Shown here piece by piece: positions 12,514-54,285 of a stretch of 64,000 bases of DNA. The stretch's first letter is position 1; every line of letters begins with the position of its first letter. Source of the stretch: a virus. A program made the position numbers and the translations under genes. The notes under the pieces are model-generated. The model was not told the origin of the DNA. It worked only from the letters and a program-made list of their open reading frames with translations, and searched no databases. The stretch lies in IMG/VR virus record IMGVR_UViG_3300035102_000507. One strand, given 5' to 3'.

Positions 12514-12548
12514 GCCCCGGAGCTTGATGCTCGCGGCCTGTGATTGTC

Positions 12549-12575
12549 ACGGAACAGACGGAACAGACGGAACAG
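12549..12575. repeat. Tandem 9-bp repeat (ACGGAACAG)x3 plus a partial fourth copy
   Basis: Read directly at 12549-12575; about 36 bp upstream of the gpW ATG. Confidence 0.9.
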
Positions 12576-12580
12576 AACGG

Positions 12581-12625
12581 AAAAATATTCGGGGCTGACA
12601 TGGATATCCATGTCAGCCCCGAATA
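12581..12625 (-). terminator. Perfect 40-bp palindrome plus U-tract ending the ktr operon
   Basis: TATTCGGGGCTGACATGGAT|ATCCATGTCAGCCCCGAATA at 12586-12625, followed by TTTTT on the minus strand. Confidence 0.7.
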
Positions 12626-12656
12626 GTATGTCAGGTTGAAGGAGAACGCGTGCTCA

Positions 12657-13307
12657 TCAAAGCTCAAGAACATCTCTGGCATGCCCGAGTATGATGAGAA
12701 CATCACCATCGCAAAGGGGTCTGCTGGCGTCCGGTACAAAGCTAAAATGACCTTCACCACAATACTTAATCGCCACCACCTGAACATTGTGTTTGTTGGT
12801 CAAGTTTAAATCGACCAGTGTTCGTCCAGCCCACTTTGTGACAACCAGCTCCCGCGTCAGGACATCCTCACCCAAGTCCAAATAATCCATTATGCCGGGA
12901 ACTGCCAGCTTGTGGGCAATCTGCTTTGCGACAAATTCCTCGGGAAAGACGACAAAGCTGACCCCAAGGCGCTGAAGAACTTTTTCATGCTGTGCGCTGA
13001 CAACTTTAACCCAAATATTGTCAACACCAAGCTCTTGCAGGTTCAAAACGGTTAGTATGCTGGCTTCCATTGATTTCCCAATGGATACGATTACTTGATC
13101 AAGTTCGTTGAAGCCAAGTTGTTTCAGTACGGCTATGTCGGTCCCGTCCGCTTGGTAGACCTGAGGCATGATGTTTCGTACTTTTTGAACATTTGATTCA
13201 TGTCTATCGATGGCGATGACCTCTTGCTTGAGGTTGAGAAGCGTTTCCGCAAGTGCACCGCCAAATTTTCCAAGTCCGATGATTCCGATTTGTTTCATCC
13301 TACTCAT
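12657..13307 (-). CDS. ktrA: Ktr/Trk potassium uptake regulatory subunit (RCK_N + RCK_C)
   Basis: IGIIGLGKFG Rossmann motif, AID, QADGT, PE...A; AAGGA RBS before ATG 13307. Confidence 0.9.
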   Translation of the reverse strand: MSRMKQIGIIGLGKFGGALAETLLNLKQEVIAIDRHESNVQKVRNIMPQVYQADGTDIAVLKQLGFNELDQVIVSIGKSMEASILTVLNLQELGVDNIWVKVVSAQHEKVLQRLGVSFVVFPEEFVAKQIAHKLAVPGIMDYLDLGEDVLTRELVVTKWAGRTLVDLNLTNKHNVQVVAIKYCGEGHFSFVPDASRPLCDGDVLIILGHARDVLEL

Positions 13308-13320
13308 GTGGCATCCTTGA

Positions 13321-14682: not shown

Positions 14683-14779
14683 GCGGCGAGTTCTACGCCG
14701 TAGGCCTGCCGCTTGCAAGTTCTAAATTACCGGTTGTTCGGCAGCGAAGGCACGGCTCGGACCGTGTTGTATGTGATAG

Positions 14780-14977
14780 TTAGTCTTCAGACATTTGCTG
14801 TCTGGATTTCTCCATAAATGTCTGGATGTCGGAAAGAGGAACTCGGATCCCGCGAGGGCCGACTCGGAAAGCCTTGGGGAATTCCCCTTTGTTGATGAGT
14901 TCATAAAACGTTGTCTTGCCGATGTTCAACATCTTGCAGACCGTCTTGTAGTTCAGAGCCGGATCCTCGTGCGTCAT
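14780..14977 (-). CDS. AlpA/Xis-family winged-HTH protein
   Basis: 65 aa, MTHEDPALNYKTVCKMLNIGKTTFYELINKGEFPKAFRVGPRGIRVPLSDI; GAGGT RBS. Confidence 0.85.
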   Translation of the reverse strand: MTHEDPALNYKTVCKMLNIGKTTFYELINKGEFPKAFRVGPRGIRVPLSDIQTFMEKSRQQMSED

Positions 14978-14979
14978 GA

Positions 14980-16965
14980 TTACCTCGAAAACCAGGTTGG
15001 GCGCGTCCCCACCAGAGAACCTTGTCTGGCCGGGCGGGCTGTGGGTTGTTTGGGGGCGGAGCCGGGCCGCTTGAGGAAGGGACCGCCGAGCGCATACCAT
15101 GCGGCCCTCGCGTACACCTCGCAGTCCCAGTAATGGTTGTCCTTGTGGTCCGGACAGAGCCAGACGCGCTTTTCCTCGTCGAACCATTCCGCGCAGAGCT
15201 GCTGGGCGTAGTCCTGAGACGTGTCCGCGTGCAGGTGGAACATGCCCGGATCGCCCGGTTCGATGGCCATGGCCGCAGCGAGGTCGTTCTTGAAAAAGGT
15301 CGTGTCGATCTGCATGAGGCTCAGTCCGCCCGGGATGCGGCTCTTGGTGCCGGGGTAGTATTCGATGTCCGAATACTTGACCGGCGTGGCCGCCAGATAC
15401 TGCTTGCCCTGAATGGGCATGATCTTGCCCCGGTGCCCGGCGCAATACTGGTAGACTTCGCGCGTCCGGTCTCCCATGGCATCGATGAGCGTCAGCCGGA
15501 TGGGGTGCACGTTGCCGTCGGCGTCCCGGTATTCCGAGCCCCAGAGCACGGACGTCAGGTCCTCGAAGGTAACGACCTGACCGGCACGCACCAGCCAGCT
15601 CTCCCAGTTCTCTCCGTAGGCAAACGCGCGTATGGAGTAGTAGAAACCGCGCTTCTGGGTATCCACGCCGGCCACGAGCCCGGCGATCAACGACCGTTCG
15701 CCTTCGGGCGTGGCGGGCACGCGGCCGCGTGGACGGCTGTCGCACAGTGCCAGTATGCGGTCTTCGTCGCGCTGGATCTCGTACTCCTGCCACGGCTCCG
15801 CCTTGATGGCGTTCATGAAGTGACGCAGGTGGGCCATGCGCTGCCGGTTCTTCTTGTCGTTTCCCTTGAGGAACCAGTAGACGCATTCGGACAGGGAGAC
15901 GAAGGTCGAAAGCCACGCCGGGATATGGAACGCCACGGACTTGGGTTCGGCCTGCCGCAGATGCTGCGCCAGTTCCATGCCCGTGGACTGCTCTCGCCAC
16001 TGCCCGGCGCGCACCGCGCGGTCGCGCGCCGAGTCATCCCAGAATCCGCCGCAGTGGGGACATTCGTACCAGGCAAGGGCCTTGTTCTTGATGACTTCGG
16101 GGTTCCGCTCGTCTTCGGGAAATTTGATCTGGTCGAAGGCCATGACATGGAACATGCCGCACTCGGGACAGCGCACCCAGAACTCGAAGCGGGCCACCGC
16201 GTTGTTCCACGCCAGCCAGATCGGCCCGTCCTCGGTGGTCGGGGTGCTGATGCGCCAAACCTTCTTGTTGTAGCGATAGGTCGTGGTGCGGGCCAGCGCC
16301 AGCGATATGGGGTCGGCCTCGTCCTTGCTGGTCAGGCGCGGATACTTGTCCACTTCATCCAGCACGAGATAGCGGATAGGGCGGTTCCCGAGTCGGGATA
16401 CCGACCGCGCCCATGCCATGTAGAGCGGCATGCCCACGAGCTTGAGCTTGATCCCGGTCTTGTCGTTGTCGCTGCCGGACAGCAGGTCGCGGAGCTCCGG
16501 GGATTCCTCGAACATGGGGGTGATGCGTTCGCGGTTGTTGTCCTTGGCCGTTTCAATGTCGGGATAGACGAACATGCCAGGGCCCGGGTCGAAGCTGGAG
16601 GCGTAGCCGATGCAGTTGTTGACGAACTCCGAACCGCCGACCTGAGGGGACTTGATGACGGCCACGTCCTGTACCGCCGGGTGAAAACTCGATTCCATGA
16701 TGCCCGTCAGGTAGGGCGTGCGCGAGTTGCGCCACGGTCCCGGCTTCGAGCTCATCGACAGGACGCGGGCGTGCTCGACCCACTTGCTGATGGGTTCGCG
16801 CCGACGCTTGCGCATGACCTTTCGCACCTGATGCCCGAGCCCGAATCGGTGGCGCTGCGCCTCAAGGCACAGGGTCCGCACGGACTCGGGCAACCAATCG
16901 GGCGGAGTGACGCGCACCCGGCGGACCTTGTTCTTCTGCTTCTGCGGGGGGACGGGTTTAAGCAT
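14980..16965 (-). CDS. Terminase large subunit, lambda GpA family
   Basis: KSPQVGGSE Walker A, LVLDEVD Walker B, ISTPT, CPECG..CPHC zinc motif, GVDTQ, NHYWDC. Confidence 0.95.
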   Translation of the reverse strand: MLKPVPPQKQKNKVRRVRVTPPDWLPESVRTLCLEAQRHRFGLGHQVRKVMRKRRREPISKWVEHARVLSMSSKPGPWRNSRTPYLTGIMESSFHPAVQDVAVIKSPQVGGSEFVNNCIGYASSFDPGPGMFVYPDIETAKDNNRERITPMFEESPELRDLLSGSDNDKTGIKLKLVGMPLYMAWARSVSRLGNRPIRYLVLDEVDKYPRLTSKDEADPISLALARTTTYRYNKKVWRISTPTTEDGPIWLAWNNAVARFEFWVRCPECGMFHVMAFDQIKFPEDERNPEVIKNKALAWYECPHCGGFWDDSARDRAVRAGQWREQSTGMELAQHLRQAEPKSVAFHIPAWLSTFVSLSECVYWFLKGNDKKNRQRMAHLRHFMNAIKAEPWQEYEIQRDEDRILALCDSRPRGRVPATPEGERSLIAGLVAGVDTQKRGFYYSIRAFAYGENWESWLVRAGQVVTFEDLTSVLWGSEYRDADGNVHPIRLTLIDAMGDRTREVYQYCAGHRGKIMPIQGKQYLAATPVKYSDIEYYPGTKSRIPGGLSLMQIDTTFFKNDLAAAMAIEPGDPGMFHLHADTSQDYAQQLCAEWFDEEKRVWLCPDHKDNHYWDCEVYARAAWYALGGPFLKRPGSAPKQPTARPARQGSLVGTRPTWFSR

Positions 16966-24135: not shown

Positions 24136-25254
24136 TCATTGAATCTTTTTTTCGTCAGTAATACAAAAATCCCCCGAAAAGGCTGATTTTGTATTACCAC
24201 TTTGTATTACCAAGTCCGGGACCGCGTTTGCCGCTGCCTTTCGCTGCTTGTCGAGCACGTGCTGGTAGTGTTTGTGGATCATGGTCGTCGTGCTGTGACC
24301 CATATTCTCAGAGAGTGCCTTGAGGTCTGCGCCGTTTGCCAGCGCCTCGGTCGCATGAGCGTGGCGGAGGTCGTAGGGGCGAATCCGGCGGGTGATGCCA
24401 GCCCGCTCAAGTGTCGCCTTCCATGCCTTCTTGATTTTCTGGACAGGCCGCCCCTTCCAATGGACCAGATACTCGGCCCCGATCTCTTGGTCTTCTGCCC
24501 ACCACTGCTCAAGGGCTGTGACGAGGCTGCCCTTCAGGGGGATATCTCTCCACGGCATTTCTGCGTTTTTGTCTGCCGACCAGATTCGCGCCACTTCTCT
24601 GCCGAAGTCTACATCGGTCCACTTGAGACGGAACATCTCCGATGGCCCTACTCTGACGCCGAGGGATAGGCCGAGGATGATAACGCGCTGAATGTGCGGA
24701 GCGGCCACGGCGAGCATGGATTGCAATTCATCCGTAGTCGGCGGCGGTATTCTCTCATCCGTTCCGCGTGGGCAGGTGAAGCGCTGGATGGGATTTGCTC
24801 CGATGAGCTCGGCGTCTTCTGCCCAGTTCATGGCGGCTTTGACAATGCCTACCTTTCGAACGATCCCGTTCATTTTTAGGCCTCGGTCACGCAGAGCTCT
24901 CACAAGTTGCCTCATGTGCGACTTGCTCAACTCAGAAGCCGGGACCATGCCAATCTCCGGCAACACTGCCTTGAGGTGATAGATGGTGTTCTTGAGGGGC
25001 TTGGGCTTAAGCTGGCGATCTTTCAGGTATGCCCACACGATAGCCTCGACGGTCAGGTCATCCCCGGACGCCTGAACTTCTTCTTCTGGCGCGAGCATTT
25101 CCGGCTCGAACTCCAGCCAGTGCCTGACTTGGCTGTCGTGCTTGCGGGCATCGCGCAGCGAATCAAAGTGCTGGGTCTGGATTTTCTTGGTGTAGGGGTT
25201 GCGCCAGTATACCCGGTAGGGCTTTGAGCGCCGGTTGAGCTTCTTGATCGCCAT
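24136..25254 (-). CDS. int: Tyrosine integrase
   Basis: GVR..E, RPYDLRH and GHS...M...Y catalytic motifs; N-terminal arm-binding domain. Confidence 0.95.
   Translation of the reverse strand: MAIKKLNRRSKPYRVYWRNPYTKKIQTQHFDSLRDARKHDSQVRHWLEFEPEMLAPEEEVQASGDDLTVEAIVWAYLKDRQLKPKPLKNTIYHLKAVLPEIGMVPASELSKSHMRQLVRALRDRGLKMNGIVRKVGIVKAAMNWAEDAELIGANPIQRFTCPRGTDERIPPPTTDELQSMLAVAAPHIQRVIILGLSLGVRVGPSEMFRLKWTDVDFGREVARIWSADKNAEMPWRDIPLKGSLVTALEQWWAEDQEIGAEYLVHWKGRPVQKIKKAWKATLERAGITRRIRPYDLRHAHATEALANGADLKALSENMGHSTTTMIHKHYQHVLDKQRKAAANAVPDLVIQSGNTKSAFSGDFCITDEKKIQ
24157..24212. repeat. Integrase arm-type repeats TTTGTATTAC inside the int 3' end
   Basis: TTTGTATTACCA at 24188 and 24201 (direct); inverted copy at about 24157-24168. 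Confidence 0.65.
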
Positions 25255-34214: not shown

Positions 34215-34949
34215 CTATTTCCTACTCATATCCGACCAAGCCCAGACCACGCGGCCAATGACCGCCCGGTCAATATCACCGCCGTATTCTTCTGTGAGTG
34301 AATACAGGGTAGGGGCGTGCTCCACATTGTCCGAGTAAAAGGTCAGCATCATGTCGCCGTTCTTTTGCTTGATCGAGACCCGCTTGACCGTGACCGAATC
34401 GTCCGGCTCCCGGACAAGGAAGATGTTCCCCGGCGGGGCGAACCGGTCCTTGAAGTCATCCCGGTCCACGAGAAGAATGTCCTGGGGATGGAGGGTCGGC
34501 ACCATGGAGTCCTGACCCTTGCCGATCTCTACCGCGATGAGGTTGGTGCGGAAGCGGACAGAGTCGTGGTTCTTCCAAACGAGAACCCATGACTTGATGA
34601 AGTCATCAGGGACCATGCCTCGGCCTGCGGCCACGCTACCCTCAGCGAGCGGCACGGCTATGTAGTCCTCCGGGATCGGATTCCCCATGTCCTCCACATT
34701 CAGACGCTGTGGAGCCACGAAGCAGACGTCTTTAGCAACGTCCTTCTCGTCTTCGGGGAAAGTCACCTTTGCGCCCAGCGTTTCCAGTATGCTGCTCAGC
34801 TTACCGAAGTCCGCAACGCGAGACTTGGAAAACCATCTGGTCAGCATAGTCGGGTTTACGTCTGCAAAGTCGGCAAACTTCCGAACGCTCCCGTAGCGGT
34901 TTCTGATCTCACGCTCTACGCGCTTCAGGGTGTCATCATAAAGAGGCAT
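34215..34949 (-). CDS. CI-like repressor (HTH plus S24 peptidase)
   Basis: N-terminal HTH; G.SM.PTL...D.LLVD and V.VKR catalytic motifs; AGGGGGG RBS before ATG 34949. Confidence 0.9.
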   Translation of the reverse strand: MPLYDDTLKRVEREIRNRYGSVRKFADFADVNPTMLTRWFSKSRVADFGKLSSILETLGAKVTFPEDEKDVAKDVCFVAPQRLNVEDMGNPIPEDYIAVPLAEGSVAAGRGMVPDDFIKSWVLVWKNHDSVRFRTNLIAVEIGKGQDSMVPTLHPQDILLVDRDDFKDRFAPPGNIFLVREPDDSVTVKRVSIKQKNGDMMLTFYSDNVEHAPTLYSLTEEYGGDIDRAVIGRVVWAWSDMSRK

Positions 34950-35001
34950 CCCCCCTGATACCAGACGGAACAACCCTTGTCTTGTTCCGGACGGATTCGT
35001 G

Positions 35002-35037
35002 TTGACTGTCTCTGATTCCATATGGCATCATCTCTCC
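35002..35037 (+). promoter_or_regulatory. PR promoter (leaderless cro)
   Basis: TTGACT-18-CATCAT, then 6 nt, then ATG; spacer ATTCCATATGGCATCAT nearly identical to PL. Confidence 0.7.
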
Positions 35038-36188: not shown

Positions 36189-36647
36189 ATGAAGGAGCAG
36201 AGGCTCACAGCCATCGCTCAGAAGGCCGTGTCCAAGTCCGACATGGAGGTCAAAGAGATTGCCCCTGAGTTGGATTTAAGGCCGTCGACGGTCTACCAGA
36301 AGCTGAACCCTTACGACGAAAACGGGTTTCTCGGTCTCGATGACGCCCATCAGATAATGCTCATGATCAACGACACCTCTGTGTTGAAGGCCATGGCGCT
36401 GGATTTCGGCTATGGCCTGCACAAGATCGGGGAGTGTCCCCCGGACGGTGCGGACATGCTCGATGAAGTCTCCCAGCTCGTGGAGGCCAGCAATATGCTC
36501 GTTCAGGCGGCGAATAAGGGTATCCCCTACGAAAGGGTTTCCCCCTTGCTGGAGAGAGTGAGGAAGGAAGCCGAGGATATCTTTGTGCGCCTCCGCGACG
36601 AGCAGAAAAGCAAGCCCCGCGTCCACGACATCAAGCAGGCCGGATAG
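36189..36647 (+). CDS. CII-family phage regulatory protein
   Basis: HTH-like N-terminus, YQKLNPYD motif; typical position after cro. Confidence 0.7.
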   Translation: MKEQRLTAIAQKAVSKSDMEVKEIAPELDLRPSTVYQKLNPYDENGFLGLDDAHQIMLMINDTSVLKAMALDFGYGLHKIGECPPDGADMLDEVSQLVEASNMLVQAANKGIPYERVSPLLERVRKEAEDIFVRLRDEQKSKPRVHDIKQAG

Positions 36648-37737: not shown

Positions 37738-39087
37738 GTGACGCAGTGTGCTGACGACATCCTGGTGCGCAACGTGCCGCCGCACAGCATGGAGGCCGAG
37801 CAGGCAATCGTGGGCGCTGTGCTCGCAAGGGCCGACCTGTTGGACGATCTGCGCGACACCATCAGCGCGGGAGACTTCTACTCGCCAGCGCATTCGAAGA
37901 TATTCCTGGCCATCTGCGAACTCGCTGATGCTTCTCAGCCCGTCGACATGCTGACTGTCGGGGACAAACTCAGCGCGCAGGACTGCCTCGACGAAGTTGG
38001 CGGACCGGTCTACCTGGCCGACTTGGCCGACACCATCGCCAGCCCGTCCTCGGTGAGCGCTTATGCACGGACGGTCCGGGACCGAGCTGCCCGCCGGGCC
38101 ATGGCGCAATCTGCCGCCGAGATTCTGCAGGACTCGTATTCGCTGGCCACTCCGACCGACGAGATTGCCGCGAAGGCTGCGAAGATTGCCGAAGACGGGA
38201 TAACCGGCGCTGTCGGCGATGGGTCAAGCACGGTTTCCATGGGCGACGCCCTGACCGACTTCGTGCAGTGGTGTGAGCATTCTCGCGCCGCGAAAGACGA
38301 CGTCATGGTGCCGACTCCATGGCAAGCGCTGAACCGGCTCATGGGTGGCTTCCACCCGGGCGAAGTCACAGTGCTTGCCGGGCGGCCGTCAAACGGCAAG
38401 ACCGCTGCGGCCCTCAATGTGGCGCTCTACGCAGCCCGACGCGACTGCCCCACCGCGGTAATCAGCCTCGAAATGTCCCGCCGCATGCTCTTGGCTCGAA
38501 TGTGTGCTGGAGAAGCCGAAATCGACGGGCGCAGATTCAGGACCGGGCAAATTGACGATGCCGACATGGGCAGGGTGTACCGCTGGTGCGACAACAACGC
38601 GGGCCTGCCGCTCAATATCTTCGACGGCACCGACCTCAAACCGTCAAGCTTGCGGGCGCTAACCAAGCGCTGGGTAAAGCGCTTCGGGGTGCGGCTGATT
38701 GTCATCGACTACTTGCAGCTCATCAAGCCGCAAACGCCCAACGCCTCGCGTGAGGTCCAGGTCGCGGAGATCAGCAGGGCCGTCAAAGAGATCGCTATCA
38801 ACCACGACGTTCATGTTCTGTTGCTGGCCCAGATGAATCGCGAGGTCGAGAAACGGACCAAACGGGAGCCGCAGCTGTCCGACCTGCGCGAGTCTGGAGC
38901 TATCGAGCAGGACGCCGACAACGTGCTGTTTATCCACCCGTGGAATCCGGACACGCAGATCAACACCATCCCCGTCAAGCTCAAGCTGGCAAAGGCCAGG
39001 AACGACTGCACCGGCGTTGCCGAGTTGGTCTACGTGCGGCCGCGACTCCGCTTCGCGGACCAAACCTTCGGGGGGCACGATGCATAG
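37738..39087 (+). CDS. dnaB: Replicative DNA helicase
   Basis: PPHS.EAEQ, GRPSNGKT, SLEM, IDYLQL, SDLRESGAIEQDAD. Confidence 0.95.
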   Translation: MTQCADDILVRNVPPHSMEAEQAIVGAVLARADLLDDLRDTISAGDFYSPAHSKIFLAICELADASQPVDMLTVGDKLSAQDCLDEVGGPVYLADLADTIASPSSVSAYARTVRDRAARRAMAQSAAEILQDSYSLATPTDEIAAKAAKIAEDGITGAVGDGSSTVSMGDALTDFVQWCEHSRAAKDDVMVPTPWQALNRLMGGFHPGEVTVLAGRPSNGKTAAALNVALYAARRDCPTAVISLEMSRRMLLARMCAGEAEIDGRRFRTGQIDDADMGRVYRWCDNNAGLPLNIFDGTDLKPSSLRALTKRWVKRFGVRLIVIDYLQLIKPQTPNASREVQVAEISRAVKEIAINHDVHVLLLAQMNREVEKRTKREPQLSDLRESGAIEQDADNVLFIHPWNPDTQINTIPVKLKLAKARNDCTGVAELVYVRPRLRFADQTFGGHDA

Positions 39088-39274
39088 GTTCAACCCCGAG
39101 ACAGGCAAGTTCGAAGAAGTCGATGTTCATGAGTTCGTGGAAGGGCTCCGCAGAAGCGAAGCGATCGCCGCGGCGAGTGATGACCCTTGCGAGGTCTTTC
39201 GGCATGGCGGGGACTTCGACCAGATGCTGATCGCGGAAAAACGCAAAAAGAAGGCTGACAAGGAGGTCGCATGA
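39080..39274 (+). CDS. Hypothetical protein
   Basis: 64 aa overlapping dnaB and rusA. Confidence 0.5.
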   Translation: MHRFNPETGKFEEVDVHEFVEGLRRSEAIAAASDDPCEVFRHGGDFDQMLIAEKRKKKADKEVA

Positions 39275-39663
39275 TCAAAATATCTCTCCCGTTCCCCCCG
39301 TCCACCAACACGTACTGGCGACACGTCTCTATGGGCAAGCGCGGTACCCGAGTGCTGATCAGCAAGAAAGGCCGGCAGTATCGCAGCGACGTAATCGGTG
39401 AGTGCTGTGCGGCCCAGCTTACCGGTAAGCGACTCGGCGGCCGACTGTGCGTCCAGGTTACGCTGTACGAGCCAGATCGCCGCAAGCGGGACATGGATAA
39501 TTTCAACAAGGCACTGCTCGACGCGCTGACCGAGGCTCAGGTCTGGGGCGACGACTCGCAGATCGACGACCTGCGGGTGGTGCGCGGGCACGTGGTCAAA
39601 GGCGGTCGGGCTGTGGTCGAGATCGAGGAGCTTGACCCGCTCCGGTGCCAGGAGGCGGCATGA
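39271..39663 (+). CDS. rusA: RusA Holliday junction resolvase
   Basis: PPS.N.YWR, D.R.RD.DN..K.L.DAL, DDSQID. Confidence 0.92.
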   Translation: MIKISLPFPPSTNTYWRHVSMGKRGTRVLISKKGRQYRSDVIGECCAAQLTGKRLGGRLCVQVTLYEPDRRKRDMDNFNKALLDALTEAQVWGDDSQIDDLRVVRGHVVKGGRAVVEIEELDPLRCQEAA

Positions 39664-40394: not shown

Positions 40395-40756
40395 TGGAAG
40401 TTTTCTTGGTGCGAGTCGCGGAGACACACGTCATCGTAGGGCTGTTTGCCGTGCCTAACATGGAAGTGCTGTTCGATTTTGTCGACGAGTTTACCGACCC
40501 ATACGGTTGCGAAGCAGCCGTAGTCGAAAGCGGCTTTGGCTTCATGTACTCCGAGGACTTCACGGCAAACAAGATCAAAGCTCTAGAAGACGAGTGCGCT
40601 GTCGGCGACTATCTCGGGCCCAAAGAGCACACCCAAAGCGTTTACGACCTGACCTTTGACGCTGACGACCCGGAGCTGACGTGGTTGCCGTTTGGGCGGG
40701 AACATTCATGGGTTTGGCGGATGGGTGAAGAGGCAAGAGAGGGGGAACCGACATGA
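40394..40756 (+). CDS. Hypothetical protein
   Basis: GGAGG RBS; acidic, 120 aa. Confidence 0.55.
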   Translation: MEVFLVRVAETHVIVGLFAVPNMEVLFDFVDEFTDPYGCEAAVVESGFGFMYSEDFTANKIKALEDECAVGDYLGPKEHTQSVYDLTFDADDPELTWLPFGREHSWVWRMGEEAREGEPT

Positions 40757-40947
40757 TCGTCCGTGGCGTTGAGATCAAGAAAGGGCTGGCCAATATCGCC
40801 GAGCACTTCGGGCGCGATGTGCGGACCGTGAAGAAGTGGCAGCGCCAGGGAGCGCCTATCTATCTCGTGGACGGGATATGGACCACCGAGACCGCCGAGC
40901 TTTGGGACTGGATTAAGGTTCGAAGGCAGAGGGAGGCGGCGGCGTGA
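40753..40947 (+). CDS. Small winged-HTH protein (Nu1/MerR-like)
   Basis: GLANIAEHFGRDVRTVKKWQRQGAP...G.W...L.DW. Confidence 0.75.
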   Translation: MIVRGVEIKKGLANIAEHFGRDVRTVKKWQRQGAPIYLVDGIWTTETAELWDWIKVRRQREAAA

Positions 40948-40955
40948 AGTGAGCA

Positions 40956-40993
40956 GTTGGAACAATTACCCATAGGTTGGAACAATTACCCAT
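40956..40993. repeat. 18-bp direct repeat GTTGGAACAATTACCCAT x2
   Basis: Copies at 40956 and 40976 (period 20). Confidence 0.9.
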
Positions 40994-41023
40994 CATGCCC
41001 GTGAATATGTTCCAAACGAACCA

Positions 41024-41058
41024 GAAGCCCCGGACATTCGGTCGGGGCTTCGTCTTTT
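41024..41058 (+). terminator. Terminator of the early-right operon
   Basis: GAAGCCCCG...CGGGGCTTC followed by GTCTTTT. Confidence 0.75.
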
Positions 41059-41075
41059 GGAACCCTGTCAACCCC

Positions 41076-41146
41076 TACATGAGGGGTACATGAGGGGGGC
41101 ATGAGGGGTACATGAGCGAACTCCGTTCAAAAAACCGGGTTATAAT
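41076..41146 (+). promoter_or_regulatory. Late promoter: four 11-bp repeats (TACATGAGGGG) then AAAAACCGGGT-TATAAT
   Basis: Repeats start at 41076, 41087, 41098 and 41109; TATAAT at 41141; no TTGACA. Confidence 0.7.
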
Positions 41147-41253
41147 GGTCACCAATCAAACGAGGGTCCGAGTTCTGCCCCGGACCGACCACCCCGGCTA
41201 CGGCTGGGAGGCACGATTTCACAGCGGGCAGGCCGGACCACCCACGGGGAACC

Positions 41254-41406
41254 ATGACGCAAGCAAATGTCCAGCATTGCCTTAACGGGTTGCACGTCCT
41301 CGCTAGACTGAGGGGGCTCGGGTTGCCGTACTCGGTGGCCTGCCCCCTCGCTCGGGCGTGGGAGCGTCTGGTGCATCCCCTGATTTACCGGAGGAAGCAT
41401 GTTTGA
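41254..41406 (+). CDS. 50-aa small protein upstream of the holin
   Basis: MTQANVQHCLNGLHVLARLRGLG...AWERLVHP; overlaps the next ATG. Confidence 0.55.
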   Translation: MTQANVQHCLNGLHVLARLRGLGLPYSVACPLARAWERLVHPLIYRRKHV

Positions 41407-41620
41407 GCTGATCGGCGTCCAGTACGTCACCACCGCCCTCTATGCGCTTACCGCGCTCGTGCTCGTGCTCGGCCTGCTGCGCTGGCTCGACAAGAGCGCC
41501 GGTCGTCCGTGGTGCAACGTCATCGACAATATCCGGGAGGACCCCCGTGCGGCAGCGCTGTACTACGGCATTCGCTTTGCTGGTGCTTGTCTGCTCGTTG
41601 GCATGGTCATGTCCAGCTAA
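41399..41620 (+). CDS. Holin-like two-TM protein
   Basis: 73 aa with two hydrophobic helices, first gene of the lysis cassette. Confidence 0.6.
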   Translation: MFELIGVQYVTTALYALTALVLVLGLLRWLDKSAGRPWCNVIDNIREDPRAAALYYGIRFAGACLLVGMVMSS

Positions 41621-42140
41621 CGCAGGCGTAGGCATTCCCAGCAAGTACGACTCCCTGATCGAGTCCTCGGTCTCCAGGTGGTGGCCGCGCGTTCCGCTCG
41701 CCGACTGGCGGTTTTGGAAAGCGCAGCTCTATCAGGAGTCGTTGCTCGATCCCGATGCCGTGTCGCCGGTTGGCGCTTGCGGTCTCGCGCAGTTCATGCC
41801 CGGCACATGGTCGGACGTGAGCCAGCGCATGGGGCTCGGAGCCGCATCCCCGTATAACGCCAAATCCGCCATCAACGCCGGTGCCTACTACATGGCCCGG
41901 CTGTACCTGTCATGGTCCGCACCGCGTCCCGACATGGACCGCTGGGACCTCGCTCGCGCATCATACAACGCAGGCATGGGCAATCTGCTCAAGGCGCAGC
42001 GTGTCGCCGGTGGCGCGAACCGTTATGCCGAGATCATCGCCGCGTTGCCAGCGGTCACCGGACATCACAGCCGCGAGACCATCACCTACGTGCAGCGCAT
42101 CCACGAGATTTACCGGAGGCTGACATGCTCGCGTCGCTGA
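41547..42140 (+). CDS. Lytic transglycosylase (SLT) endolysin with a signal peptide
   Basis: QESLLDP.AVSPVGA.GL.QFMP.TW and ASYNAG motifs; GTG start with GGAGG RBS; N-terminus ...FALLVLVCSLAWSCPANA. Confidence 0.85.
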   Translation: MRQRCTTAFALLVLVCSLAWSCPANAGVGIPSKYDSLIESSVSRWWPRVPLADWRFWKAQLYQESLLDPDAVSPVGACGLAQFMPGTWSDVSQRMGLGAASPYNAKSAINAGAYYMARLYLSWSAPRPDMDRWDLARASYNAGMGNLLKAQRVAGGANRYAEIIAALPAVTGHHSRETITYVQRIHEIYRRLTCSRR

Positions 42141-43752: not shown

Positions 43753-44109
43753 ATGCCACCACGTTTTGCGGAGCACAACAGTCAGCGCAGGGGAACGGCT
43801 GCCCAGCGAGGATACGACCGCGCGTGGCAGCGAGTCCGTGGCGCGTTCCTCAAGGCTCACCCTCTTTGTGTCGAATGCGAGCGTCGGGGCAAGGTCAGGC
43901 CCGCCGAGGTCGTGCACCACCTCAAGCCCGTCGAAGACTTCCCGGAGTTGAGGCTCAAGTGGTCGAACCTCGAGGGGCTGTGCCGGGACTGTCACGAACG
44001 TCATCACGGGCGAAAGGCTGGCGGTGGAGGGTGTGATGCCTCTGGATGGCCTGCATCATCCGACCATCCGTGGAACCTGAGCGAAGGGGGGCGGGGGTCA
44101 AAAGTCTAG
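43753..44109 (+). CDS. HNH endonuclease (terminase-associated)
   Basis: RGYD..W, CVEC, VHH, NLEGLC..CH. Confidence 0.9.
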   Translation: MPPRFAEHNSQRRGTAAQRGYDRAWQRVRGAFLKAHPLCVECERRGKVRPAEVVHHLKPVEDFPELRLKWSNLEGLCRDCHERHHGRKAGGGGCDASGWPASSDHPWNLSEGGRGSKV

Positions 44110-44188
44110 GGCCTTCTCTCTGTAGACCGACGGTGGAAGTTTTCTTTGTAGTTTCACGAAAAAACAGGGGTACTTTTTCGAGGCAAAA

Positions 44189-44629
44189 ATGGGCAAGCGC
44201 GGACCGAAGCCGAAGGGCAATCTCAAGGTCGTAGAGGTCGGCCAGCACCAACCGGAGCGACCGAAGCCGTTGCCGGGGATGAATACTCGGTCCCGAGCGA
44301 TGTGGCGACGGATTGTCAAAAGCGTCCCGGTCGATCATTTCTGCCCGGCAGATCTGCCCCTGCTCCGGGACTACTGCGAGGCCTATGACAGGAGCGTTGA
44401 AGCCCAGAAGGCTATTAACCGGGATGGGCACTACATCCCGACCGGCACCGGAAGCATCAAGGCTCACCCTGCGGTTGCCGTGAAGGTTGCTGCTTCTCAG
44501 TGCATGGCCCAGCTCGGCACTAAGCTCGGACTGACTCGGTCAGCCCGGCGCGGCAAGGAAAAGGACAGCGAGACGGAAAAGCCCAGAAGCAAGCGCGACG
44601 GGCTGATGTTTGGAGGCAATAAGGCGTGA
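44189..44629 (+). CDS. Terminase small subunit, P27 family
   Basis: MGKRGPKP, HPAV, LGLT.SAR. Confidence 0.9.
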   Translation: MGKRGPKPKGNLKVVEVGQHQPERPKPLPGMNTRSRAMWRRIVKSVPVDHFCPADLPLLRDYCEAYDRSVEAQKAINRDGHYIPTGTGSIKAHPAVAVKVAASQCMAQLGTKLGLTRSARRGKEKDSETEKPRSKRDGLMFGGNKA

Positions 44630-46215
44630 AGGTGTACCAGTCAGATCGTGGAGAGCGCGTTATCGAATTCATCGAGACGCTGAACATCCCGGAAGGCATG
44701 CATGTTGGGCAGCCTTTCCGTCTGCGTGATTGGCAAAAAGACATCATCCGCCGTGTCTACAACCCCGTGGACGAGTACGGAAACCGTGTTGTCCGCAAGG
44801 TCATCTACTCCGTTGCGAAAAAGAACGGCAAGACGCCGATGGTTTCGGCGATAGGCCTGACGCACCTCTGCGGTCCGGAGGCCAAGAAGAACGAGCAGCT
44901 CTACTCTGCCGCATTTCAGCGCGACCAGGCCAGCATCACGCATCGTTACATGAGCCAGATGATCGAGCTTGATGATGAGTTGTCCGGCGTTCTGAACGTC
45001 AAGGCGGCCACCAAGGAAATCGAAGCCCCGAACGGTTCAATTTTCAAGGCTCTGTCGTCTGAAGTGAAAGGGAAGCACGGCATCGGTCCAGCCCTCTTGA
45101 TCTTCGACGAGCTGGCACAGTTCGGCGCGGACAGGGAATTCTACGACACATTGATTCAGGGGCGCGGAGCGCACGAAGAACCGCTTATGTGGATCATTTC
45201 CACGCAGGCGAAAGACGACCTCGCAGTCCTGTCGCAAGAGATCGACTACGGGATGAAAGTCATGCGCGGCGAGATCGACGATCCGAGCGTCGTGTGCTGC
45301 CTCTTCGAGACGGACGAAGATGCAGACCTTGAGGACGAGGACGCCTGGAGGGCAAGCAACCCGGCCCTTGGCGATTTTCTCAGTATGGCCGACATGCGTG
45401 AAGCGGCGAAGACGGCGAAGAACATGCCCAGCGCCGAAGCAAATTTCCGCAACCTCAGGCTGAACCAGCGCATCGACTCGGCAGCTCATTTCATAACCCC
45501 CGGCACCTGGAAGGCCAACGGGGCTGAACCGGACATGTCTGTCTTTGAAGAGTGCGAGTGCGTTGGTGGACTTGACCTTTCGGCGAAAAACGACCTGACC
45601 GCGCTGGTGTTCGTTGCGGAAGACGAGAGACGGCAAATCCATGTGCTTCCGTTTTTCTGGACACCCGGCGACACCCTCAGGGACAGGGCCGAGCGGGATC
45701 GCGTGCCTTATGACCTGTGGCGAGATCAGGGATACCTCGAAGCCAAGCCGGGCCGCACCATCGATTATGGGTGGGTGGCGAAGAAAATCGCCGAGCTCAT
45801 GTCCTGGCTGAACATAAAGGGGATCAAGTTTGACCGCTGGCGTATCGACGACCTCAAGCGCGAGTTGGAAAAAATCGGGGTGGAGGTCTGGGTTGACGGT
45901 TCTGACGAGCCGATCCCCGGCGGCCTTCGCCTCGTGCCGCATGGACAGGGATTCAAGGACATGAATCCAGCGGTCGAAACCGTCGAGGACATTCTGAGTG
46001 AAGAGCGGGCGCGGCATGGTAACCACCCTGTGTTGACCTGGTGTGCGGCAAACACCCGCGTGCAGTCAGACCCGGCAGGAAACCGCAAGTTCGACAAGCT
46101 CAAAAGTACGGGCCGGATTGACGGGCTCGTGGCGATGGCCATGGCTGCAAACGGCGCGGTGAGCATCGGAGAAGTCGTTGAGCAAGAAGCAACCCAAGCT
46201 TTTGTGGAGCTGTAA
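44626..46215 (+). CDS. Terminase large subunit
   Basis: AKKNGKT, IFDE, ISTQ, GLDLS, KFDK.KS.GRIDG.VA. Confidence 0.95.
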   Translation: MKVYQSDRGERVIEFIETLNIPEGMHVGQPFRLRDWQKDIIRRVYNPVDEYGNRVVRKVIYSVAKKNGKTPMVSAIGLTHLCGPEAKKNEQLYSAAFQRDQASITHRYMSQMIELDDELSGVLNVKAATKEIEAPNGSIFKALSSEVKGKHGIGPALLIFDELAQFGADREFYDTLIQGRGAHEEPLMWIISTQAKDDLAVLSQEIDYGMKVMRGEIDDPSVVCCLFETDEDADLEDEDAWRASNPALGDFLSMADMREAAKTAKNMPSAEANFRNLRLNQRIDSAAHFITPGTWKANGAEPDMSVFEECECVGGLDLSAKNDLTALVFVAEDERRQIHVLPFFWTPGDTLRDRAERDRVPYDLWRDQGYLEAKPGRTIDYGWVAKKIAELMSWLNIKGIKFDRWRIDDLKRELEKIGVEVWVDGSDEPIPGGLRLVPHGQGFKDMNPAVETVEDILSEERARHGNHPVLTWCAANTRVQSDPAGNRKFDKLKSTGRIDGLVAMAMAANGAVSIGEVVEQEATQAFVEL

Positions 46216-51129: not shown

Positions 51130-51152
51130 AAAAGCCCCGCCGGAGCGGGGCC
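51130..51152. terminator. Hairpin between convergent genes
   Basis: AAAAGCCCCGC-CGGA-GCGGGGC. Confidence 0.6.
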
Positions 51153-51184
51153 ATGGTTCTTTGATAGTCGAATAGGGTATCGGG

Positions 51185-52078
51185 TCAGATTTTACCCGCA
51201 ATCTTCAAGGCCTGCTCCGTCTGCTTGGCTGTTTCGCTGTAAACCTCGGCGGCGACGCCCATCAGGTTATAGCAAAGCCCCATCAGGCGGTAGTAGCCTT
51301 GGAGGTGCAGGTTCATCGCGGCCTTGTTTTCCTTCGAGCCGTATTCAGCCGTCCTGATCTTGTAGCGCATGTCCTCGAAGTGGTGGCGCTGGAGCGTCAG
51401 GAATGAGTCTTCTTCGGTCTTGTAGAGGTCAAGCTCCCTGCTGAACTCCAAGAGGTCGGCGCCCGAAAGCGTCGGGGGAGGGGCCGGGAGGGCCTTGGGT
51501 TTCTGGTTTGCCTTGGCGACAACGGCGTCAATGCGTTGCTGGAGGAAGTCACAGGCCTCGCGCACCTGATCGACGGTCAGGTCGTCAACGGTCGTCACGC
51601 CGAACTTGGCGTGGATGAGCTTCCATGCATCACGGAAGGAGAGCGGGGCAAGGCCGACGTAGACCGCGACCAGGTCCTTGAGGGGGCGGCGGTCTGCTTT
51701 AGTGGAGAGGGCGCAGTGGTAACCACCTGTCTGCCGGATGGACGGCAAGACTTCCGAGGCTACCCAGTTGGTGAACCTATCGGCTTCCGGCTTGTTGGAG
51801 CGAAACGCCAGCTTGTAGACAGCGGGCTCCGAGATGACGGTGATCGGCGAATAGAGCCCACCACGACCTGTCTTTTTAGGGGGACGGAGTTTCCGCACCC
51901 CTTTCCATTCGTCAGGGACGGAAGCAAGCGTGTTGCTACGCCAGGCAATATCCAACGCGGAACAAACATCCTTCGCCACGAACCAAGGCTGTCCCTCGTC
52001 GTAGACGGTGCGGATAGGGGTTTCGTTGAAGCTGAACGGGGTGACAGCGGCACAGTCGGCTTGGGCGGTGTTAGGCAT
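51185..52078 (-). CDS. BRO-N domain antirepressor
   Basis: F.F....IRTV...QPWFVAKDVC, ISEP.VYKL.FRS.KPEA..F..WV..EVLPSIR. Confidence 0.9.
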   Translation of the reverse strand: MPNTAQADCAAVTPFSFNETPIRTVYDEGQPWFVAKDVCSALDIAWRSNTLASVPDEWKGVRKLRPPKKTGRGGLYSPITVISEPAVYKLAFRSNKPEADRFTNWVASEVLPSIRQTGGYHCALSTKADRRPLKDLVAVYVGLAPLSFRDAWKLIHAKFGVTTVDDLTVDQVREACDFLQQRIDAVVAKANQKPKALPAPPPTLSGADLLEFSRELDLYKTEEDSFLTLQRHHFEDMRYKIRTAEYGSKENKAAMNLHLQGYYRLMGLCYNLMGVAAEVYSETAKQTEQALKIAGKI

Positions 52079-52123
52079 GATGCCTCCTACTGTTTCTCTA
52101 GTGGCATCACCGAAATGAATGAT

Positions 52124-52197
52124 GCCGGGAGCTAGAACCTCAGTAGGCGAGGCTGGCTATTTTGGGCAAACGCCTTGGACATTTCACCACTCCCGGC
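52124..52197 (-). ncRNA. C4-like antisense RNA (prophage B)
   Basis: Same 74-nt scaffold as 18758-18831; loop GCCUACU in a CCUC/GAGG stem is complementary to AGUAGGC (52285-52291) and to AGUAGG over the BRO RBS (52086-52091). Confidence 0.7.
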
Positions 52198-52352
52198 AAC
52201 TTGGGTGCGAATATACCATGCCTCATGGTAGGGCCACAATGGGCAAGAGGCATGAAAAAGCCCCGGCTGTCGGGCGGGATGACCGCCTACTGGAGTTTCT
52301 AGGCTCCGTGCAGTCACCACGCCACAAACCGGGGCGGATGTCAAGGGGAAGG

Positions 52353-52688
52353 TTAGTTGCACAGGTGAAGGCCTTTTTGGATTAGTGGCATAAGGTCTCT
52401 ATTGGTGTAGTCACGGGCCTTTCTGTGTGGGTTCCCCTCGGCATCCTTTAGATTGGCGCGGTCGAACCAAGCCATAGCTTGCCCGTTGATGGCATATGTG
52501 TACCCATCAGAGCCGTTTATCCATACGGCCTTCCGTCCATTCCCGAGGTTTTTGCAGTACAGGGTTCCGCTGCTAAAGGTGAACGGCCAAACTCCACCTA
52601 AGTTTTTTTTGTACACATGGGCAGAGTTGGCGAAAGCGGGGCCAGGGGCCAGTGTTAGGGCTAGTAGGATAAAAATAGTTTTCATCAT
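52353..52688 (-). CDS. Exported YebY/DUF2511-like protein
   Basis: Signal peptide; WPFT...G.L.C and TYAING.A motifs. Confidence 0.65.
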   Translation of the reverse strand: MMKTIFILLALTLAPGPAFANSAHVYKKNLGGVWPFTFSSGTLYCKNLGNGRKAVWINGSDGYTYAINGQAMAWFDRANLKDAEGNPHRKARDYTNRDLMPLIQKGLHLCN

Positions 52689-52722
52689 GAGGGTATCCCT
52701 ACCTTTGTTTTGTTAGGAAGAA

Positions 52723-52974
52723 TCATGAGTTGGGAGGCGGGTTTTTGGAAAACGGCGGCGGCTGTGGTTCAAGCCTCTGTTTCGCCTTAGTGGTCTGTTC
52801 AGGGATGGGCGCGTCAAACTTTTTAGCAAGCCCCTCTAGAATGGCGGTTTGCTTCCTTAATTCCTGGTTGTTGGCCTTGGTCCAACTCCAGATGAAGAGA
52901 GGAGAGAGGGCCAGCATGACGCCTAGAATGAGAAATATCAACTGGACTGCACCAATACTTAGAAGGGCTTCCAT
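52723..52974 (-). CDS. Small membrane protein
   Basis: Long N-terminal hydrophobic helix; GGAGG RBS. Confidence 0.55.
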   Translation of the reverse strand: MEALLSIGAVQLIFLILGVMLALSPLFIWSWTKANNQELRKQTAILEGLAKKFDAPIPEQTTKAKQRLEPQPPPFSKNPPPNS

Positions 52975-52984
52975 CGTGCCTCCA

Positions 52985-53350
52985 TCACGGCCTAGTAACC
53001 CACACATCAACAGGAAGGCCGTATTCCTGAATGACCCGATGCACTCGACGAACATAGCGCATGTCTTTGTCTTTCTCGATGATGAGCACGATGCCGGGGC
53101 GCCTCCCGGTGTGCGCGCCGTAGAGCAAGGCTTGCCCGATGGACTCTGCCCATTTGTTGGCAAAGTCGAACTCCACCGCGTGAGTCTCCGTGAGGCAATC
53201 GCAGCGAGTCCGGTCCGGCATGACGACCTCGGTTTGCCCTTGTTCCGCTGCGCACCACCGGTCTTGATACCAAACCTCATAGTGGAGGCGTTTGGCATGG
53301 GCCAGCGGGGCGACGGCAAGCCATGCGATGAGAAAAACAAGTATGCGCAT
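52985..53350 (-). CDS. Signal-peptide protein with a PD-(D/E)XK-like motif
   Basis: MRILVFLIAWLAVAPLAHA signal; R.DC.T...AVEFD....ESIGQAL.Y. Confidence 0.55.
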   Translation of the reverse strand: MRILVFLIAWLAVAPLAHAKRLHYEVWYQDRWCAAEQGQTEVVMPDRTRCDCLTETHAVEFDFANKWAESIGQALLYGAHTGRRPGIVLIIEKDKDMRYVRRVHRVIQEYGLPVDVWVTRP

Positions 53351-53388
53351 TGAATAGCCCGTATCAGAAAACCGCACGGGAGGGCAAC

Positions 53389-53970
53389 ATGGGCAAATAC
53401 AGCGGAAGGGGGTGGATGAGCACCGAAGTCACCGGGATGCGCGAGCTTGACCGGGCTCTTTCAGTCCTGCCGGACAACATCGCCCAGAAGGTCCTTAAGC
53501 AGGCCGTCGCCGCGGGTGCTTCGGTCATGAAGCGCGAAGCGAAACGTAGGTGCCCCAAGAGGACCGGTCGGCTTGCGAAGTCTATTGCGATGAAGTTCAA
53601 ACGCATTGGCCGTGGCTCCCGTCGCGGCCGGGTCTTTTACCAGGTCGGCCCAAAGGAAAAATACGGGCACTTGGTCGAGTTCGGGACGGGCCCGCACATC
53701 ATCAAACCAAGCGTAAATCGTCGGATCAAATTGAAGGCGCGAGGGGAAAAGGTCTCCGACTATTGGGGGCTTGGCTACAAGGGGCGTTTCGGAAAAAAGG
53801 TAAAGCACCCCGGCGCGACTGCACAGCCCTTTTTGAGGCCCGCCTTTGACGAGTCGTCTGACCAGATCATAAAGGCCATGCAGCGCAGGATCAGGACCGG
53901 CGTTGAGAAGGAAAGCCGTAAGCTGGCTCGCAAGCGCATTGCAGCGCGCAGGGCGGCCCGGAGGGGATAG
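53389..53970 (+). CDS. HK97 gp10-like tail completion protein
   Basis: G..EL...L, RTG.LAKSI, H.VEFGT, AQPFLRPAF. Confidence 0.85.
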   Translation: MGKYSGRGWMSTEVTGMRELDRALSVLPDNIAQKVLKQAVAAGASVMKREAKRRCPKRTGRLAKSIAMKFKRIGRGSRRGRVFYQVGPKEKYGHLVEFGTGPHIIKPSVNRRIKLKARGEKVSDYWGLGYKGRFGKKVKHPGATAQPFLRPAFDESSDQIIKAMQRRIRTGVEKESRKLARKRIAARRAARRG

Positions 53971-53971
53971 G

Positions 53972-54217
53972 ATGCACGGCGCCACTCTGCTAAAGAACGC
54001 CGCAGAGCCTCACACCAACAGTGACGGACTCAGGGGGCTTGAGAATATCGCATCCTATGCTCAGTACGGGGCGAAGCTCATCCCTGAGCTTGTAGAACAC
54101 CATGGCTTCCCCGCGGAGCAGTTCATGGGCAAGTGGGAATCATCAAAGATGCTGATTGACGAATGGCGGCTAAAAAGACTCCGCTCGAAACTATGTCAAT
54201 CAGTTTCTGACGGGTAA
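53972..54217 (+). CDS. Small winged-HTH protein, paralogue of 40753..40947
   Basis: GLENIA...GFP...GKW...IDEW aligns by eye with GLANIA...GAP...GIW...WDW. Confidence 0.65.
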   Translation: MHGATLLKNAAEPHTNSDGLRGLENIASYAQYGAKLIPELVEHHGFPAEQFMGKWESSKMLIDEWRLKRLRSKLCQSVSDG

Positions 54218-54285
54218 AACTCCGCAAAACTCCGCAAAACTCCGCATACGCCGGATCGCCCAAAAAGCCGGGTTATAATCTCGGC
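54216..54285 (+). promoter_or_regulatory. Tail-operon promoter: (AAAACTCCGC)x3 then AAAAAGCCGGGT-TATAAT, leaderless
   Basis: Repeats at 54216-54245; TATAAT at 54274; ATG 6 nt later with no SD. Confidence 0.7.

Follow-up and report, generated by a model that had tools for sequence, protein, structure and literature searches.

A small winged-helix gene and a phased-repeat promoter at the early-late boundary of a lambda-like prophage: a possible activator of late genes

The IMG/VR virus record IMGVR_UViG_3300035102_000507, analysed here as one stretch of 64,000 nucleotides (the window), contains a lambda-like prophage on its plus strand. At the position occupied by Q in lambda-like phages, with the early genes before it and the lysis genes after it, lies a gene encoding a winged helix-turn-helix (wHTH) protein of 64 residues, here named wHTH-1, which is followed by a promoter with tandem repeats and no -35 hexamer. 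From comparative sequence analysis we consider, with confidence a little better than even, that wHTH-1 is the activator of late-gene transcription in this prophage. The locus is composed of the following elements.

40753–40947, plus strand: wHTH-1, winged-helix protein of 64 residues, from the list of open reading frames (ORFs)
40956–40993, plus strand: two exact 18-nt direct repeats (GTTGGAACAATTACCCAT) at 20 bp spacing, directly after the wHTH-1 stop codon
41024–41051, plus strand, with a T-rich tail to 41058: hairpin resembling an intrinsic terminator, with a 10-bp stem that includes 7 G-C pairs
41063–41075, plus strand: distal box CCC-TGTCAA-CCCC (TGTCAA at 41066–41071), 69 bp upstream of the -10 hexamer
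41076–41119, plus strand: four 11-bp tandem repeats (TACATGAGGGG twice, GGCATGAGGGG and TACATGAGCGA), at about -77 to -34 relative to the predicted start
41129–41146, plus strand: core promoter made of an A6 tract, CCGGGT and TATAAT, with no -35

Two ORFs of unknown function, one of them encoding a zinc-finger-like protein of 249 residues, separate RusA from wHTH-1, whose ATG overlaps the stop codon of the preceding ORF; the gene is translationally coupled to the early operon. The preliminary description of this DNA had placed a 64-residue wHTH gene where a lambdoid phage would have Q, and the gene order, with RusA and the two ORFs on one side and the lysis genes on the other, agrees with it. 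None of the proteins scanned from 34.2 to 41.6 kb gave a Pfam match to a Q family. When compared with the Q systems of phages lambda, 82 and 21, the locus has neither a Q protein nor a promoter-proximal terminator after the late promoter: the terminator is upstream of the promoter and not after it, therefore the arrangement is not a Q/tR′ cassette, and no terminator was called in the 250-nt leader. An equivalent hairpin lies 3′ of the related gene in three other loci (L002, L056 and L071). The 18-nt repeats have no further copy in the window, with zero copies expected by chance, and are absent from L002. In addition, TTGGAAC half-sites related to them occur on either side of the terminator, inverted at 41009–41017 and direct at 41055–41063.

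In the tandem array two copies are exact, while the third and the fourth have 2 differing positions each. Tandem Repeats Finder (TRF) delimited it at 41076–41116, with period 11, 3.7 copies, 86% matches and a score of 68, and period 11 also gave the top autocorrelation, as it did in most of the related loci. At the core promoter no sigma-70 -35/-10 pair was called, and no hexamer resembling TTGACA is present 16–18 bp upstream. The sequence CCGGGT-TATAAT of the window does not have the TG of an extended -10, but its hexamer is perfect; it is a variant of AAAA-n-CCGTGn-TAnnnT, found throughout the family of related promoters, and is no special element. It is not a common motif of the hosts either, as a search of 101 related genomes allowing one mismatch gave 3 matches against 5 for the control. 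The terminator after the wHTH gene, the four 11-bp repeats and AAAAAACCGGGT-TATAAT without a -35 had all been reported in the preliminary description and are confirmed here; its account of the promoter was right in the repeats and the -10, and overlooked the distal box and the extended -10 consensus. Two other identities were considered for the distal box and rejected: as the -35 of a divergent or same-strand promoter it has no suitable -10 at 16–18 bp in the window, and as a site for integration host factor (IHF) of the Escherichia coli type it is a poor match by eye.

On sequence and model evidence, wHTH-1 is a stand-alone winged helix of the MerR/Xis/Nu1 type and belongs to an unnamed family that shares homology with the lambda Nu1 DNA-binding domain. 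Its own match to the N-terminal part of Pfam Phage_Nu1 (PF07471) is below the threshold (23.2 versus 30 bits, profile positions 7–31 of 164), and so are the PHROGs matches to the terminase small subunit and the Nu1 N-terminus. A word-indexed protein search returned a single close homologue; a profile search from six sequences returned 4 viral loci, and none among genome contigs or metagenome contigs. An exhaustive HMMER search at E ≤ 1e-3 gave 38 family representatives, nearly all of 59–81 residues, which share the motif G..IA..FGV...TV+.W...GAPI....G.Y.AE..ELW.W.K. The family profile aligned with the DNA-binding domain of lambda gpNu1 (1j9i) at E=3e-6 over residues 4–56, that is, the whole length of the domain, and with BldC marginally, at E 0.2–0.4. 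None of the Pfam searches of wHTH-1 and the family matched Cox or Xis, and weak Sigma70_r4 matches were seen in just 2 of 30 family members.

The AlphaFold2 (AF2) model of wHTH-1 has a predicted local distance difference test (pLDDT) of 91 and a beta-alpha-alpha-beta-beta-alpha topology. In Foldseek this model matched the DNA-binding domains of Nu1 and of other terminase small subunits (TerS; 1j9i, 7lw0, 6hn7) with template modelling (TM) scores of 0.62–0.77 and BldC (6ama, 6amk) with TM 0.57–0.64 and probability 0.98; further matches were RacA, the excisionase RdfS (8dgl) and MerR regulators. The model, these MerR/Xis/BldC/Nu1-type matches and the Nu1 profile match uphold the winged-helix assignment made earlier. 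A complex prediction with three copies of wHTH-1 (score 0.18, mark 0.42) carries no weight in either direction.

Prophages in Desulfovibrionaceae-like genomes, which are those of Gram-negative sulfate reducers, commonly carry the family: its hidden Markov model (HMM) matched in 132 of 401 genomes of the order, and in 117 of 294 within the same family. The nearest genome, G001, is of the same genus as G020, which by its coordinates is GCA_027923765.1, the sulfate-reducing strain SYK, a cultured isolate with two prophages. DNA of the window is also present in oil-field metagenomes, and a blastn search of 39.2–42.2 kb against phage GenBank gave only a short endolysin match. Searches of Rfam returned nothing relevant (whole window at the gathering threshold; 40900–41450 at E ≤ 1). 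The gene follows RusA and precedes the lysis genes in the window, L002, L056, L059 and L071; more generally, in the relatives it is located after RusA or VRR_NUC and ahead of the lysis and packaging genes. Opposite-strand insertions, such as toxin-antitoxin pairs and pentapeptide-repeat proteins, are often found between the family gene and the late genes.

The 38 loci found through the protein were inspected within the DNA available downstream, and 13 of them present one shared architecture. A set of 17 promoters was composed of 16 loci linked to a wHTH gene plus the second site of the window described below. The shared order is an AAA..CC-TGTCAA box, repeats, an A-tract, the extended -10 CCGTGn-TAnnnT, a short leader and the first late gene, and the consensus of the box over the 17 promoters is AAA..Cc-TGTCAA-cccc. 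Repeats usually number 3–4 units, with a period of 10–11 in most related loci, and their sequence is lineage-specific. The spacing from the box to the -10 is 65–71 bp in 14 of the 17 promoters; the exceptions are 74 bp (second site of the window) and two loci with 79 and 98 bp, which correspond to about one and three helical turns more. The earlier suggestion that the gene, the phased repeats and the promoter without a -35 form a recurrent unit is borne out, these elements being found together in many of the prophages surveyed. Lysis genes lie downstream in the nine loci checked (window included), seven with endolysins, which fall into six unrelated families (SLT, Phage_lysozyme, GH108, DUF5675, pesticin-like and muramidase); the control module therefore travels with the regulator and not with its cargo.

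That the repeats are unrelated in sequence between lineages, and that two loci have none, could be expected if they were neutral products of slippage in a spacer of constrained length, in front of a plain extended -10 promoter with a coincidental neighbour gene. This we hold to be highly improbable, as independent lineages repeatedly present 3–4 units of period 10–11 in the same interval, the length of this interval is either conserved or altered by about one or three helical turns, and a single phage has two exact copies of the core promoter.

The closest homologues of wHTH-1, by sequence and by structure, are DNA-binding domains of terminase small subunits, and some family members are directly upstream of terS. 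In L071 there is a second true member (8741–8953, minus strand, HMM E=3e-15) directly before terS/terL, with a spacer of about 50 bp, and in G001 (L164) a P27-type terS comes directly after a family member. These observations favour a function as a packaging accessory, a stand-alone Nu1-like domain that would mark cos or pac DNA for the terminase. The genes around the locus bear on this question.

24136–25254, plus strand: integrase
34215–35021, plus strand: S24 repressor
36189–36647, plus strand: CII-like protein
37738–39087, plus strand: DnaB
39271–39663, plus strand: RusA
41399–41620, plus strand: holin-like membrane protein, with the endolysin the first recognisable gene of the late operon
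41622–42140, plus strand: SLT-domain endolysin; homologues of the holin and of this protein are present in L059 and L071
43753–44629: block of HNH and P27-family TerS, with TerS itself at 44189–44629
44626–46215: large terminase subunit (TerL), preceded by the P27-family TerS

Past the SLT endolysin, the order is spanin-like protein, DUF559, HNH, P27-type TerS, TerL and portal. An HNH gene directly before a P27-family TerS and TerL is the arrangement of HK97-like cos phages, and for this reason the cos site of the window is probably near 44110–44190, and not at 41 kb. wHTH-1 has the N-terminal winged-helix DNA-binding domain of a Nu1-type TerS; it is not a full-length protein with C-terminal self-assembly and TerL-binding regions, nor is its gene adjacent to that of the large terminase. 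Because it is too short, below the Pfam threshold and not beside TerL, in a phage with a TerS of its own, wHTH-1 is not a real Nu1. The packaging function is very doubtful: the prophage carries its own P27-family TerS beside HNH and TerL (43753–46215), 3.2 kb downstream of wHTH-1, which lies ahead of the lysis genes; an endolysin, and not a terminase, is next in seven of the other loci checked; and the repeats stand at a fixed, helically phased distance to the -10 in the 14 promoters mentioned above. The slot just upstream of terS is, moreover, also typical of late activators (PMC3753634).

At 54 kb the window contains a second site, flanked by an HK97-gp10-like gene on one side and the tail-terminator gene on the other, with the elements below.

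53972–54217, plus strand: ORF of 81 residues upstream of the second promoter, of unproven relation to the wHTH family
54188–54199, plus strand: box-like AAACTA-TGTCAA
54216–54245, plus strand: three exact 10-bp units AAAACTCCGC
54262–54273, plus strand: A5 tract and GCCGGGT
54274–54279, plus strand: TATAAT, with a spacer of 74 bp from the box to the -10

The 12-mer CCGGGTTATAAT is identical at both promoters, with its second copy at 54268–54279, and the 64 kb contain no other exact copy; as many near-matches as observed were reached in 0 of 100 shuffles. With a box-like element, repeats of its own and the same core, the site, to judge by its sequence, belongs to the same promoter class. The ATG of the tail-terminator gene is at 54286, 6 nt after the -10, so that this mRNA may be leaderless. 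The head-tail operon is broken up by a bidirectional terminator (51134–51151) and an inserted block of genes on the minus strand (window 51134–53377); the gp10-like gene is at 53350–53970. The 54.2-kb promoter, just downstream of the inserted block, may restart the transcription of the tail genes.

The layout was said earlier to recur at this site with a paralogous protein and different repeats. The DNA part of this statement holds, in the repeats and in the identical 12-mer core, whereas the protein part does not: the 81-residue ORF and wHTH-1 gave E=0.01 in pairwise BLASTP and a probability of 12.6% in hhalign, and the family HMM did not match the ORF even at E ≤ 10. Its homologue search was empty, its atlas matches were uninformative, and its fold from the single sequence is all-helical with low confidence (pLDDT 63). 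The relatedness of the second protein is not demonstrated, and the idea that each operon has its own activator-repeat pair loses its footing; because the box-like element and the core are common to both promoters, a single factor could serve both.

A third occurrence, proposed at 12.5 kb in prophage A, was not sustained. The gene adjoining the 9-bp repeats there (12289–12513, minus strand) encodes a gpW-type head-tail adaptor (phrog_118), and the nearest small wHTH protein (14780–14977, minus strand) is of the HTH_17/AlpA family, lies 2.2 kb off across ktrAB and is not matched by the family HMM; the site has no TGTCAA box and no comparable -10. Prophage A itself (12289–16965, minus strand) presents the gpA-type TerL, AlpA/HTH_17, trk/ktr-like K+ transporter genes (12657–14718), the 9-bp repeats, the gpW-type adaptor and the portal, an order that represents an unusual insertion within the packaging module.

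The search was also run in the reverse direction, with the DNA pattern alone (CCTGTCAA, 58–74 nt, CGTGnTAnnnT), in 301 genomes. It gave 43 matches against 11 with a control pattern, about 19 of them from the genus g38 and about 24 from outside it. The five highest 10–11-bp periodicities (0.50–0.72) were found among the matches from outside g38, in L201/L233, L206, L226/L239, L240 and L205/L234, and for three of these five the same strand carries a family gene at 0.6, 1.7 or 8 kb upstream, where about 5e-4 per site is expected by chance, given about 0.4 family genes per genome. The gene and the promoter are associated in both search directions.

Within g38 the matches include a multicopy host element (G217 contig 34: L230 and L231; G186 contig 9: L232) with CCTGTCAAC, two TTTTTGTCC motifs and AAAAnCCGTGCTATAnT. 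It occurs in up to five copies per genome, beside two-component genes for NtrC-type response regulators and before a repeated gene of 242–248 residues. Among viral contigs, the 18-mer core promoter was found mostly in an unrelated low-GC family, and in one high-GC group (L019, L023, L027, L045 and L046) in which an identical core, AAAAAGCCGGGTTATAAT, is separated from the terS ATG by 10 nt. Upstream of it (L023, 1600–2132) is a 500-bp non-coding stretch dense in CGAACGATC/GATCGTTCG motifs; the high-GC contigs have no TGTCAA box, and no family gene within the DNA available.

The closest full relative of the window is L071, with identities of 70% for the SLT endolysin, 58% for the holin, 51% for RusA and 43% for the spanin-like protein, and about 77% for the leader. 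The box and the core promoter are nearly identical in the two, whereas the repeats are unrelated (two 22-bp units in L071, four 11-bp units in the window) and the wHTH proteins align over 26 residues only, at 50% identity. This divergence is the pattern that would be expected if the protein reads the repeats. In addition, L206 and L233 share the same protein subtype and repeats of the CAGCCCCC type, but they are clearly related phages.

Several observations weigh against an activator role for wHTH-1. The box is invariant while the recognition helix of the proteins varies, and its reader may therefore be a host factor or some other phage protein. The multicopy host element of g38 fits the pattern of box, spacer and extended -10 without a family gene, and therefore the box need not be read by a wHTH protein. 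In L056 and L163 no clear repeats accompany the gene, the box and the -10, and the family members directly before terS (the second copy of L071 and L164) have no box or repeats. The co-divergence seen with L071 comes from a single pair, and neighbouring elements are inherited together in any case. Finally, L002, with a relative 92% identical to wHTH-1, diverges completely past the stop codon, and its contig ends 330 bp later.

The first two of these points are also arguments for supposing that the promoter is real but is read by a host protein or by another phage protein, wHTH-1 being an early protein with another task, such as control of excision directionality in the manner of Cox or Apl, or regulation of an early or immunity promoter. 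The presence of the excisionase RdfS among the structural matches, and the 18-nt repeats directly after wHTH-1, which could be its true target, add to this possibility. We judge it unlikely, since wHTH-1 is about 16 kb from the integrase, the promoters with the highest periodicity have an upstream family gene far above chance, the protein and the repeats diverge together between the window and L071, and the g38 element could be one chance match amplified by duplication. There is no att-like context at wHTH-1 either, and the gene lacks the position near int or att expected of a recombination directionality factor.

For the activator that we favour, the following sequence of events can be proposed. 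wHTH-1 would be the final protein produced from the early operon, whose end would be the terminator 41024–41051. It would then bind the DNA between the TGTCAA box (about -86 to -81) and the -35 region, loading as several monomers, one per helical turn; the loading stretch would be the four 11-bp repeats, and the element read may be the box or the repeats. Several subunits would in this way be bound upstream of a start predicted from the -10 at about 41152–41155. Loaded wHTH-1 would recruit or stabilise the host RNA polymerase at a promoter with a good -10 and no -35, its effect being presumably activation and not repression. Holin, endolysin, packaging and head genes would thereby be switched on, and the second promoter at 54.2 kb would restart transcription for the tail genes, past the opposite-strand inserted genes and the terminator. 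The Q-independent late activation put forward in the preliminary description receives comparative support from the Q position, the fold and the recurrent layout of gene and promoter; its one activator-repeat pair per operon does not.

Most relatives have a TGn-TAnnnT extended -10, able to work without a -35, and the small MerR-like protein Gp36 of mycobacteriophage D29 binds direct repeats and represses (PMC12266134). wHTH-1 could accordingly be conceived as a repressor or timer of the late promoter, which would coat -80 to -35 and delay or damp an active extended -10 promoter. Several facts make this very unlikely. The lytic early operon would supply the protein just ahead of the genes that then need activation; the repeats are upstream of the polymerase footprint, without overlapping the -10 or the start; and the same layout is that of activators in the Ltr systems. 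Besides, the promoters of the window do not have the TG of the extended -10, and because of this they should be weak unaided.

The predicted late transcript begins with a conserved leader, followed by a small ORF.

41161–41246, plus strand: conserved 5′ leader hairpin of about 85 nt
41254–41406, plus strand: ORF of 50 residues between the leader and the holin, overlapping the holin start

Counterparts of the leader are found in L056 (about 5113–5198) and L071 (about 10999–11083, minus strand). Over roughly its first 100 nt, the predicted transcript shows about 77% identity among the window, L056/L057 and L071, while the promoter repeats differ. The leader is non-coding, as reading frames are not conserved and there are 1–2-nt indels, and all three leaders form the same long imperfect hairpin (z -1.8 to -2.4), with some wobble changes and at least 1 compensatory change. 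It has no Rfam match (including 40900–41450 at E ≤ 1), and a search for more copies, using DNA patterns as well as blastn across 401 genomes, gave only L071, L056 and L057, other matches looking like chance. The leader could be a stabiliser of the mRNA 5′ end or a put-like antitermination RNA, and its three sequences are a lead. Conservation of the 50-residue ORF extends to L071, at 41% identity, and to L056, at 26%; the ORF could encode a lysis regulator.

A more elaborate form of the activator can be imagined as a switch in two parts. A Nu1-like wHTH would nucleate at TGTCAA near -83 and spread head to tail over the repeats to the polymerase, and the 85-nt leader hairpin would confer resistance to termination, as put does, or stabilise the 20-kb late mRNA, both parts together replacing Q entirely; the repeats and the variable residues of the recognition helix would set a phage-specific (orthogonal) specificity. 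We find this version quite unlikely.

If wHTH-1 is indeed a late activator, many temperate phages of sulfate-reducing bacteria would use a relative of the Nu1 domain, of 60–80 residues, for late control, and a widespread unnamed prophage gene would receive a name and a job. A DNA-binding domain of packaging type would have been reused for transcription, and there would be a compact promoter with separable parts (box, repeats and extended -10), of use in building genetic tools for organisms in which engineering is difficult. With its phase-locked spacing, the mechanism lends itself to direct testing.

Late-gene control in phages is well worked out in only a few groups: Q, Ogr/Delta, Mor/C, Ltr and T4. 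In phage phi29, protein p4 has its activator site centred near -82 of the late A3 promoter, which has no -35; p4 is, on the other hand, unrelated to wHTH-1, binds inverted repeats and works with p6. The N-terminal domain of lambda gpNu1 (1j9i, 7lw0) and the TerS domain 6hn7 are the closest to wHTH-1 by sequence and fold, and Nu1 reads repeated R elements. Unlike gpNu1, wHTH-1 has no C-terminal terminase domain, its gene is not beside TerL and its candidate target DNA is phase-locked to a promoter.

The general layout is best known from the Ltr activators of phages of Gram-positive bacteria (RinA, ArpU, LtrA, LtrB and LtrC), for which the succession of activator gene, terminator, direct repeats and late promoter was shown experimentally (Quiles-Puchalt et al. 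2013, PMC3753634), and the repeats are required for activation (PMC3753634). The same succession, from a gene at the early-late boundary to a late promoter, is found here, and in both cases the gene of the regulator, here a candidate one, closes the early region directly ahead of the late operon. The Ltr proteins differ in having about 130 residues, a basic character and a C-terminal domain similar to sigma-70 region 4, against 64 residues and a MerR/Nu1-type winged helix in wHTH-1. The hosts here are Gram-negative sulfate reducers, and there is an extra invariant distal box at a fixed spacing together with the extended -10.

wHTH-1 also resembles P2 Cox, 186 Apl and lambda Xis, small winged-helix proteins that load on boxes spaced by 10–11 bp and form filaments or bend DNA. 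P2 Cox activates the late promoter PLL of phage P4 from boxes 10–11 bp apart (PMC3936717), and 186 Apl is a small wHTH protein that loads on repeats one helical turn apart (PMC7498355). Like these and BldC, wHTH-1 is a small MerR/Xis-like wHTH protein without a dimerisation or effector domain, and it has four direct repeats of period 11 beside its gene as a candidate target. Cox, Apl and Xis are also excision factors, and early-switch repressors near the int or immunity region, whereas no such role or position is seen here, and wHTH-1 is of another sequence family. BldC of Streptomyces, a MerR-like protein of 68 residues, assembles cooperatively into head-to-tail multimers on direct repeats whose number varies (PMC5859096). 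It matches the wHTH-1 model in structure and likewise has no dimerisation domain; it differs as a chromosomal developmental regulator whose targets have ordinary promoters, and the sequence similarity is marginal. RdfS assembles as an oligomer on DNA, and D29 Gp36 is a small MerR-like repressor acting on GC-rich direct repeats (PMC12266134).

The earlier remark that this is not a described system goes too far, as the general layout is known from the Ltr activators (PMC3753634) and small wHTH proteins that load on repeats are known from Cox, Apl, BldC and Gp36. For the wHTH family and for the invariant distal box at phase-locked spacing, no description was found in the literature searched. We conclude that the general mechanism is not new, and that what is probably new is the protein family that would be doing a known job.

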